Shown here: piece by piece, positions 30,727-31,257 of the stretch | Position numbering within the stretch: position 1 is the first letter of the stretch | How the letters are laid out: each line of letters opens with the position of its first letter | Assembly: GCF_900113045.1 (NCBI RefSeq) | Contig: NZ_FONY01000041.1 | Span: 5,309 to 46,075 of the forward strand | Reading direction: 5' to 3' | DNA length: 40,767 nt | Source: Thermoflexibacter ruber | Lineage (GTDB): Bacteria > Bacteroidota > Bacteroidia > Cytophagales > Thermoflexibacteraceae | Program-made: the position numbers and the translations under genes | The notes under the pieces: generated by a model | Told to the model about the DNA's origin: nothing | Databases searched by the model: none | What the model saw: the letters and a program-made list of their open reading frames with translations, nothing else

Positions 30727-30771
30727 AGTAGTTCAACTATTTTTTTATATTTAATTGGGTAAAAATAAAAA

Positions 30772-30802
30772 AATGAGTTGTAAAAATCCTCTACAACTCA
30801 TT
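30772..30802. terminator. Bidirectional rho-independent-type hairpin (AATGAGTTGTA-aaaatcctc-TACAACTCATT) flanked by an A-run and a T-run
   Basis: 11-bp perfect stem with a 9-nt loop. AAAAAAA lies immediately 5' and TTCTATTTTTATTT immediately 3', so it is T-rich after the stem on both strands. It sits in the promoter-side intergenic region of the amine oxidase and about 455 nt upstream of the MVP start, with no annotated gene it could terminate. Confidence 0.5.
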
Positions 30803-31172
30803 TCTATTTTTATTTAAAAAGCAGTTAGTTTACATTAAGTACAGCGTTACTCCTCAATGAGAATATATATTTTATCTTGTAAACAAGTAGATTCCACAAA
30901 AAGGCTATAATCATCAAAGAAAATTTAATAAGCAATGTTTTCATAAGATATGTAAGTTTTTATATAGTTAGTTTATTTTACAGTAGCTTATACGTTCATG
31001 TAAATATTTAGGTTGCAAACTTTATAAAAATATTCACTTATAAAATATCCCACTATCTTCATTTTAATCACGCTATCAAGGAATTTTCTCTTTTCCTTTA
31101 CTCCTTCAAAAAAAAATTTAAAAAGTGTATAAAAAACACTAACCTTAGTGTAAAAAATACGTATATATTGTT

Positions 31173-31248
31173 AGAATCTGGAATCAAAAAAATTAGAAAT
31201 CTGGAATTTCTTAATTTTAAATCATTCCAGATTAAATCATTCCAAATT
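31173..31248. promoter_or_regulatory. Repeat array immediately upstream of the MVP start: TTAGA(A)ATCTGGAAT x2 (direct, 22 bp apart) and AAATCATTCCA(G/A)ATT x2 (tandem), sharing core heptamer CTGGAAT/ATTCCAG
   Basis: Read directly: 31171-31184 versus 31193-31207, and 31219-31233 versus 31234-31248. The second pair contains the reverse complement of the first pair's core. The array ends 10 nt before the ATG at 31258. Confidence 0.55.
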
Positions 31249-31257
31249 AGCAAAAAG

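Follow-up and report, generated by a model that had tools for sequence, protein, structure and literature searches.

A candidate divergent control region between amine oxidase and major vault protein genes in Thermoflexibacter ruber

The stretch of Thermoflexibacter ruber DNA analysed here (40,767 nucleotides of contig NZ_FONY01000041.1, below called the window) carries two divergent genes, one for a flavin amine oxidase and one for a major vault protein (MVP) homologue. Our subject is the region 30727-31257 between them, which runs from the amine oxidase start (the complement of its ATG, at 30726) to the MVP ATG at 31258. An earlier note, made from the letters of the sequence alone, had taken this region for a gene-free, AT-rich regulatory locus with an orphan bidirectional terminator, a possible small RNA and an operator-like repeat array. 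The features that it described are real and the locus is more structured than it supposed; its interpretation holds in part. On the minus strand we find a conserved, unannotated open reading frame (ORF) of 39 codons with a predicted promoter and terminator of its own, and on the plus strand a conserved promoter-like block followed by a highly variable leader in front of MVP (Table 1). We consider it rather probable that the whole interval forms one compact control region for the divergent genes, made up of four functional pieces. The assignments of promoters, transcripts, translation, regulator binding and leader function given below are drawn from comparative sequence and should be read as predictions.

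The AT-richness is plain, since the G+C content is 24-27% in the region and 35-48% in its flanks. The region also has no credible ORF of 60 or more amino acids, as had been stated; ORFs of 81 and 61 amino acids that reach into it are antisense overlaps of the two flanking genes. An in-frame TTG at 31168 that would extend MVP is not conserved and was rejected as a start. The MVP homologues found are 60-95% identical to that of the window and the relatives are Cytophagales; an exact-sequence look-up with the window MVP gave no record. Among the compared amine oxidase loci, L089 (96% identical), L091 (91%) and L001-3 (~82%) all adjoin MVP, and L092 (64%) adjoins an aquaporin-family (MIP) gene and has no MVP. 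The five lineages referred to below are the window, L089, L091, L001 and L092; the context of the amine oxidase start codon, ATGGCAGT, is kept in all of them.

The 39-codon reading frame, its predicted promoter and its hairpin

The small ORF was missed by gene callers in every locus, and the region is therefore not "gene-free" as had been thought. It is exactly 39 codons long in each of the five lineages. Its ratio of nonsynonymous to synonymous substitution rates (dN/dS) is 0.19-0.65, and 0.19-0.37 against the most distant copy, that of L092; second codon positions have the fewest changes, and the frame is free of stops, with 1-7 stops in each other frame of the six. In simulations the ORF survived 38 random substitutions with P = 0.023, and none of 20,000 runs left it with 15 or fewer amino-acid changes, as is observed. 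Both frame and length are thus kept, with a signature of purifying selection and a simulation P of at most 0.023. The product matched nothing in Pfam, NCBIfam or 1.84 billion predicted-protein representatives. It is conserved over its whole length and not in hydrophobicity alone; because its N-terminus is hydrophobic (its tail is basic), the ORF probably encodes a small membrane protein.

Upstream of the ORF, the boxes TnTGCAAC and CGTA are invariant in the five lineages, and the 17-nucleotide (nt) spacer between them is not conserved. Promoters for extracytoplasmic function (ECF) sigma factors have AAC in the -35 element, CGT in the -10 element and spacers of 14-17 bp (PMC5758882). Conserved elements of this kind, an AAC and a CGT-type box 14-17 nt apart, are present both here and in front of MVP (below), and the pattern AAC-N16/17-CGT[AT] has just two matches in the intergenic DNA of the window, namely these two divergent promoters. 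We infer that both are of ECF type. Like the group 4 ECF promoters, of which the Bacillus subtilis sigma-W sequence TGAAAC-N16-CGTA is an example (PMC5758882), they combine an AAC -35 with a CGT(A/T) -10 at 16-17 nt, a T-rich stretch follows the AAC, and at the small ORF and at distant MVP loci the boxes are conserved and the spacer is variable. They differ from the known cases in having a Cytophagales host and no adjacent sigma/anti-sigma pair that we could find, and in that the spacer of the window MVP promoter is itself conserved and overlaps an inverted repeat. From the TGCAAC-N17-CGTA promoter a minus-strand transcript of ~220 nt would run from a start near 30984 to 30760. A sigma-70-type candidate on the same strand, TTTACA-18-TAAAAT at 31004..30975, was rejected as it is not conserved in L001; in the sigma-70 scan as a whole, promoter-like counts equalled the shuffle expectation.

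The hairpin that had been noted, with an A-run on its 5' and a T-run on its 3' side, lies at 30773-30801 (ATGAGTTGTA-N9-TACAACTCAT) and is unique within the window. It is far more stable than expected by chance (z = -8.0 on the plus and -6.1 on the minus strand; none of 200 shuffles folds as well). Read on the minus strand it is a 12-15 bp stem followed by UUUUUUUAUUUUU, which has the form of an intrinsic terminator, and the terminator scan flagged it too. In the five lineages 23 nt separate the small-ORF stop codon from the stem, and the hairpin is thus no orphan. Neither does it appear to be bidirectional: stem and minus-strand U-run are invariant in the five lineages (the loop varies), whereas the plus-strand T-run is lost in L001 and L092, and the site is not the end of any plus-strand gene. 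In L092 the stem has one change, which makes a U-G pair in the minus-strand RNA and a C-A mismatch in the plus-strand RNA. The hairpin occurs only in loci that have the small ORF, so that the terminator is conserved together with the transcription unit; three distant amine oxidase loci (L093-L095, 53-60% identity) have neither.

Hairpin and U-run (30801..30760) would then be the small gene's own intrinsic terminator. Like other intrinsic terminators behind small genes it is a stable stem-loop with 7+5 U, close behind the stop codon and kept with the gene; unlike them it has an A/T-rich stem and lies 34 nt before the next gene on the same strand. Because of that last position its role may be that of a partial terminator inside an operon, and some read-through may feed the amine oxidase. 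The unannotated minus-strand transcript that had been suggested to end at this hairpin most likely exists, by our prediction. Its proposed nature as a non-coding small RNA is another matter: the 39-codon ORF in it is under purifying selection, and the transcript is therefore probably a small mRNA. ORF, promoter and hairpin are, on the comparative evidence, inherited with the amine oxidase and independently of MVP, because they are all present at L092, where MVP is not a neighbour.

The idea that a counterpart of the vault RNAs might be encoded next to the vault gene found no support in RNA-family searches. No Rfam covariance model matched the window at its gathering score, and in 30650-31330, searched at E up to 10, the best E was at least 0.16, far below gathering scores, with all hits on the hairpin; vault RNA (RF00006) is among the families that do not match the region. 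The likeness to eukaryotic vault RNAs is confined to the general idea of an MVP-associated RNA in the genome, and it breaks down in that the sole extra transcript predicted here is coding and linked to the amine oxidase. A consensus fold of the RNA from the minus-strand region gave one compensatory pair only and is uninformative.

The predicted vault gene promoter block and its inverted repeat

In front of MVP a block of ~60 nt is identical or nearly so in all close relatives. Its consensus, from 18 instances, is aaAAAtAatTTTaAAAAGTGTAtAAAAAACACtAACCTTaGTGTAaaaaaTACGTatAtat, and AAC and CGT are 16 nt apart in every one of them. The block precedes MVP also in the non-syntenic loci L004 and L007 (its right half only in L005), and in L016, L026 and L067 (the last a Bernardetiaceae metagenome-assembled genome), whose MVPs are just 62-65% identical. 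In nhmmer searches it was found solely in front of MVP, plus one duplicated copy in L016. Of 46 MVP loci, 15 have AAC-N16/17-CGT[AT] on the sense strand in the 300 nt upstream of the gene; on the antisense strand the number is 2, and shuffles give an expectation of 2.6. Additional distant Cytophagales loci have TGAAACCTTT-N12/13-ACGTT or GCAACC...CGT with unconserved spacers, and so resemble the small-ORF promoter; the first of these forms fits the AAC/CGT layout and the 14-17 bp spacing of ECF promoters (PMC5758882). These findings are consistent with the idea that MVP is transcribed from a second ECF-type promoter (AACCTT at 31141, CGT at 31160), with a start near 31169-31171, and they bear out the view of the region as a regulatory locus, or hub, for the vault gene.

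In L016, ~125 nt of the MVP block and leader start are duplicated (918-1040 and 4754-4880) around a two-gene insert (genes at 1165-1782 and 1788-4727), one product of which is a ParA-like P-loop protein of 979 amino acids with a match to PDC-M28B/C, candidate defence proteins of PADLOC. It would seem that a defence-type cassette inserted into the MVP leader of L016 and took up a copy of the promoter.

Within the block, the inverted repeat AGTGTA-N6-ACACT abuts the -35 element. Across the 1.86 Mb searched, the pattern A[GT]TGTA-N6-8-ACACT has 28 matches, 17 of which fall at most 300 nt upstream of MVP (0.77 expected); outside that count are five more at promoter blocks, in L091, L096, L098 and L099 (at or near MVP) and in L100, where the match is at a nicotinamidase-like gene. 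The repeat is thus conserved and almost exclusively associated with MVP, as befits an operator tied to the genes that it regulates. Its distance from the -35/-10 pair varies between loci: in L031, L029 and L043 it lies 7-20 nt upstream of the pair, in L024 and L070 it lies within the leader, and L029, L031, L039 and L043 have a second, degenerate copy downstream of the -10. A palindrome that can move relative to -35 and -10 is best read as a regulator site, and AGTGTA-N6-ACACT is probably such a binding site; in the window a degenerate second copy may overlap the spacer. It is different in sequence from the CTGGAAT array discussed below and lies 35-50 nt upstream of it. No regulator gene consistently adjoins the loci that have the repeat.

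A LexA-like SOS box (CTAA-N5-TTAG or GGA-N5-TCC) was also considered, as the window block has CTAA..TTAG inside the palindrome ACACTAA-CC-TTAGTGT. In the Bacteroidetes box CTAA-N5-TTAG, a changed spacer length abolishes binding (PMC8565304), and the candidate was rejected because the window has CTAA-N2-TTAG, with 2 nt in place of 5; moreover, unlike in LexA-like boxes (PMC8565304), the flanking GTGT/ACAC are the conserved bases here. Three MVP loci labelled Vulcanimicrobiota or Synergistia (L084:4507-4523, L077:1133-1149 and L068:4400-4416) have the palindrome AGTGTAATTATTACACT 460-570 nt upstream of MVP. They are ~90% identical to each other and so amount to one observation, which could be due to chance; conservation of the repeat across phyla was not accepted on this basis.

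The block is not confined to vault genes. When metagenome contigs were scanned for the exact pattern AACACNAACCTTWGTGTRNNNNNTACGT, five matches were found, two before MVP, two (in L100:1454-2373 and L097:603-1450) before a gene for a distant nicotinamidase-like cysteine hydrolase of 262-263 amino acids and one cut off by a contig end. The best matches of this protein are nicotinamidases (PDB 2h0r, 1e-6; 3pl1, 2e-5), and it scores 2e-9 to 1.5e-10 against NCBIfam PRK11609, below the family cut-off; in L100 a short-chain dehydrogenase gene follows. Since the same block precedes a second kind of gene, it may mark a small regulon. Eukaryotic vaults were recently reported to contain an NADase (TEP1), which hydrolyses nicotinamide adenine dinucleotide (NAD) inside them, and PARP4, and to bind ADP-ribose at the MVP shoulder (bioRxiv 10.64898/2026.05.01.722283). 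The parallel between this chemistry and the bacterial pairing is a lead, not a finding.

The predicted vault gene leader and the wider locus

The four copies of a CTGGAAT/ATTCCAG core, direct and inverted, that had been noted before the MVP ATG are present at 31176-31247. Three of them are exact copies of ATCTGGAAT or its complement and the fourth has one mismatch, and there is no other exact copy in the 40.7 kb; in addition, a 15-mer, TTAAATCATTCCAGA, is tandemly repeated at 31217-31246. The predicted -10 element lies upstream of the first repeat, which places the array wholly within the predicted 5' leader of MVP.

This array had been thought to be a multi-site operator for a dimeric regulator, a view that lack of the repeats upstream of MVP orthologs was to refute. 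They are absent from L089, L091, L009, L004, L005 and L007, and a CTGGAAT array occurs in one other lineage only (L001-3/L098). Between the window and L089 (95.6% identity in MVP DNA), the amine oxidase, small ORF and MVP are 92-100% identical, 31003-31169, between the two promoters, is 77-83% identical and 31170-31270 is 52-62% identical. The array thus lies in the least conserved stretch of the locus, which makes a conserved protein operator unlikely.

Relationships among the leaders are incongruent with those of their flanks, where the genes follow a consistent tree. The leader type of the window groups with that of L001 (73% leader, 85% MVP identity), and that of L089 groups with L004 (68% leader, 81% MVP); by inspection L091 and L009 share TAGTTAYGAGT...AACTCATAAC, at an overall leader identity of 61%. 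Since non-sister lineages share leader types, leader variants may have been exchanged by recombination or retained over a long time. Other inverted repeats stand at the same place in other lineages (TTATGAGT / ACTCATAA in L009, TTATGAATTAGGA / TCCTAATTCAT in L089). Folded as RNA, the window leader forms a hairpin with z = -2.7 to -2.9, and 6 of 11 MVP leaders fold with z of -2.7 or lower, through complementary arms that are specific to the lineage. The array would then be one of several interchangeable, rapidly replaced repeat sets, which in about half of the lineages would form a 5' stem-loop, and any effect that it has would most likely be exerted through the RNA (on message stability or access to the start codon) and not as a protein operator. 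Stem-loops at the 5' end of bacterial mRNAs, for example in the ompA leader, stabilise the message or mask the start region. The MVP leaders are like these in that the repeats begin a few nt after the predicted start and the partner arms lie just before the start codon, and unlike them in that the sequence is replaced between close relatives and only about half of the leaders fold significantly. The idea that promoters of this class are generally followed by a leader hairpin was rejected, as the nicotinamidase-like leaders have no significant fold.

Table 1. Features of the amine oxidase-MVP interval and its two flanking genes (window positions; promoter, terminator and leader entries are predictions)
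Feature	Position	Strand	Details
Flavin amine oxidase, 447 amino acids	29383..30726	-	Pfam Amino_oxidase 5e-55; 3' of the small ORF and terminator, same strand
Predicted intrinsic terminator of small ORF	30760..30812	-	arms 30801..30792 and 30782..30773; U-run 30772..30760
Unannotated 39-codon ORF, product MKTLLIKFSLMIIAFLWNLLVYKIKYIFSLRSNAVLNVN	30825..30944	-	length, frame and codon conservation
Predicted ECF-sigma-like promoter of small ORF	30991..31017	-	-35 TGCAAC 31017..31012; -10 CGTA 30994..30991; 17 nt apart
Spacer between the two divergent promoters	31018..31107	.	poorly conserved; indels of 11-27 nt and lower identity among close relatives
Predicted MVP promoter block, ~60 nt	31108..31170	+	18 distinct instances, near-invariant core positions
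Block: A/T tract	31108-31122	+	part of conserved block
Block: inverted repeat AGTGTA-N6-ACACT	31124-31140	+	part of conserved block; abuts -35
Block: -35-like AACCTT	31141-31146	+	part of conserved block
Block: TTAGTGTA	31145-31152	+	conserved spacer of predicted MVP promoter
Block: -10-like TACGTA	31158-31163	+	CGT at 31160-31162
Predicted MVP 5' leader with repeat array	31171..31257	+	repeat clustering, fold, divergence
Array: forward ATCTGGAAT	31176-31184, 31199-31207	+	exact copies
Array: reverse ATTCCAGAT	31224-31232	+	exact copy, inverted
Array: reverse ATTCCAAAT	31239-31247	+	one mismatch, inverted
MVP homologue, 826 amino acids	31258..33738	+	Pfam MVP_shoulder 1e-31, Vault_3 3.5e-10

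Some features of the surrounding DNA were also recorded. Beyond the amine oxidase, an ORF of 134 amino acids (28933-29337) has no family match and is kept at the same position in L001-3, L089 and L091. Three histidine kinase genes lie near the locus (21239-23386, 23435-25450 and 26643-28802), two of the 7TMR-DISM type and none with a response regulator nearby; in L007 a 7TMR-DISM kinase (1777-3783) is the direct divergent neighbour of MVP. Further off, at 9931-12852, is a gene for an MmeI-family type IIL restriction-modification enzyme. On the other side, MVP and the gene that follows it are probably divided by a terminator: a hairpin of 15 bp, richer in G+C and with a T-run, was detected on the minus strand at 33750-33782, 12 nt beyond the MVP stop. 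A gene of the Uma2 family (putative restriction endonuclease-like; 33775-34605) separates MVP from a gene for a RuBisCO-like protein; the Uma2-family gene is not at this position in L001-3, where the RuBisCO-like gene directly follows MVP. That gene belongs to a cluster (34630-39619) with an SBD_N/NBD_C sugar-acid kinase, a PGDH_C-type dehydrogenase and a 498-amino-acid protein whose L001 counterpart has apionate-lactonase domains, and the cluster looks like a sugar-acid catabolic operon rather than one for carbon fixation.

Alternative readings and significance

Several results weigh against the picture of a divergent control region drawn above. The small ORF was seen in one narrow clade only, and the window compared with L001 alone shows no third-position bias and no coding signal for it; the signal appeared only after L089, L091 and L092 were added. 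Its hairpin has 4 G-C pairs in a 10-bp core, and the 34 nt from the U-run to the amine oxidase ATG showed no convincing promoter for that gene alone, so that the amine oxidase may depend on read-through and the organisation of the transcripts is uncertain. No ECF sigma gene was found in the window or adjoining any motif-bearing MVP locus, and in tblastn searches with approximate RpoE and SigW queries the only MVP loci that had an ECF sigma gene nearby were three without the motif. The spacer TTAGTGTA of the MVP promoter is itself conserved, which is unusual for a plain promoter. Finally, 5 of the 11 MVP leaders, the two nicotinamidase-like leaders and the leader of L099 have no significant hairpin, and the repeat array folds equally well in the sense and antisense directions, so that its RNA-level role is only putative.

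Given the conserved spacer, the MVP block could instead be two tandem transcription-factor sites, AGTGTA-N6-ACACT and TTAGTGTA-N5-TACGTATA, acting on a nearby housekeeping promoter of the Bacteroidota -33/-7 kind. AGTGTA does recur 23 bp apart, the inverted repeat does change position (after the -10 or in the leader in the six loci listed above), and L016 has a perfect -7 box, TAAGTTTG, 17 nt downstream of CGT. Against this, the fixed 16 nt between AAC and CGT holds in 18 of 18 instances, distant loci keep (T)GnAACCTTT...CGT with an unconserved spacer and apart from the inverted repeat, and the -7 box TAnnTTTG was rejected as a candidate, with one-mismatch matches only in the window and none at a fixed, conserved distance; we therefore regard tandem sites as unlikely and continue to read the block as an ECF-type promoter with an adjoining regulator site. 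On the minus strand, the small ORF might be a type I toxin, its transcript might be mainly a regulatory RNA, or the ORF might be a leader peptide that attenuates the amine oxidase. The product is short, hydrophobic and basic-tailed like type I toxins, the 5' untranslated segment TATAAAAACTTAC is invariant, and a strong terminator stands before the amine oxidase ATG with no obvious promoter between. We judge these possibilities to be decidedly unlikely even so: the conservation of the whole peptide goes beyond hydrophobicity, no antisense promoter or RNA that would accompany a toxin was identified, and, as for attenuation, the stop codon is probably too far from the stem for a terminating ribosome to melt it and a consensus fold of four sequences, from few lineages, had no alternative (antiterminator) pairing. 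A gene for a putative small membrane protein remains our preferred reading.

The leader repeats could be functionless, left behind by slippage during replication, by template switching or by small palindromic mobile elements in a tolerant, A/T-rich leader, a reading that we think doubtful while granting it an appreciable chance. Copy number is unstable (2+2 in the window, 2+3 in L001 through an 18-nt insertion), leaders are replaced wholesale between near-identical relatives, in L016 and L026 this place is taken by long perfect palindromes like those of mobile elements, and half of the leaders have no significant fold. Yet a 5' arm after the predicted start and a 3' arm by the start codon recur with different sequences in several lineages, the repeat occurs nowhere else in the window and so is not a multi-copy element here, and the sharing of leader types by non-sister lineages speaks for exchange or retention rather than pure decay. 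An RNA stem-loop of lineage-specific sequence is only slightly preferred over functionless turnover. The model of the earlier note, which makes the hairpin an insulator or the orphan bidirectional terminator of a non-coding small RNA and the CTGGAAT/ATTCCAG array a multi-site DNA operator for a dimeric regulator of MVP, now seems very improbable. It could appeal to the A- and T-runs on both sides of the hairpin in the window, to the statistical clustering of direct and inverted repeats next to the start codon, and to their place just downstream of the predicted transcription start, where a roadblock repressor could act. It is contradicted by the loss of the plus-strand T-run and the lack of a plus-strand gene running into the hairpin, by the coding signature of the transcript, and by the fact that L089 and L091, the closest relatives, lack the repeats, as do 5 of 6 related leader types; furthermore, CTGGAAT is not present at a nicotinamidase-like gene that has the same block and comes from a metagenome with a CTGGAAT-type MVP locus.

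A bolder possibility, which we rate as a long shot, is that vault genes belong to a dedicated and so far unrecognised stress or defence regulon, marked by the ECF promoter and AGTGTA-N6-8-ACACT, together with the nicotinamidase-like enzyme and, at this locus, the 39-residue peptide and the amine oxidase, and that the hypervariable leader is under diversifying selection. If true, co-regulation with the nicotinamidase-like enzyme would tie bacterial vault shells to the turnover of NAD and nicotinamide, and the diversifying selection on this exchangeable leader could stem, for example, from an arms race over vault expression.

Bacterial MVP homologues are widespread, and to our knowledge nothing is known of when or why they are made. 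A survey of bacterial MVP (bioRxiv 10.1101/872010), the only such survey that we found, makes no mention of promoters, operons or gene neighbourhoods. Promoter, operator, terminator, small ORF and structured leader are all of known kinds, and the results are for this reason useful rather than startling. One general lesson is that a terminator which seems to belong to no gene can mark a small gene that annotation overlooked. The region offers testable cis-elements, an alternative-sigma-type promoter and a palindrome, both kept before MVP across Cytophagales families, and with the nicotinamidase-like gene as a second gene class behind the same block these elements could help reveal the inducing signal. 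What makes the locus valuable is mainly the missed small gene, the hypervariable leader, which calls for an explanation, and the first candidate for a cis-regulatory code of bacterial vault genes; the two predicted back-to-back promoters of stress type in this 530-base region may be the first concrete handles on how vault genes are switched.

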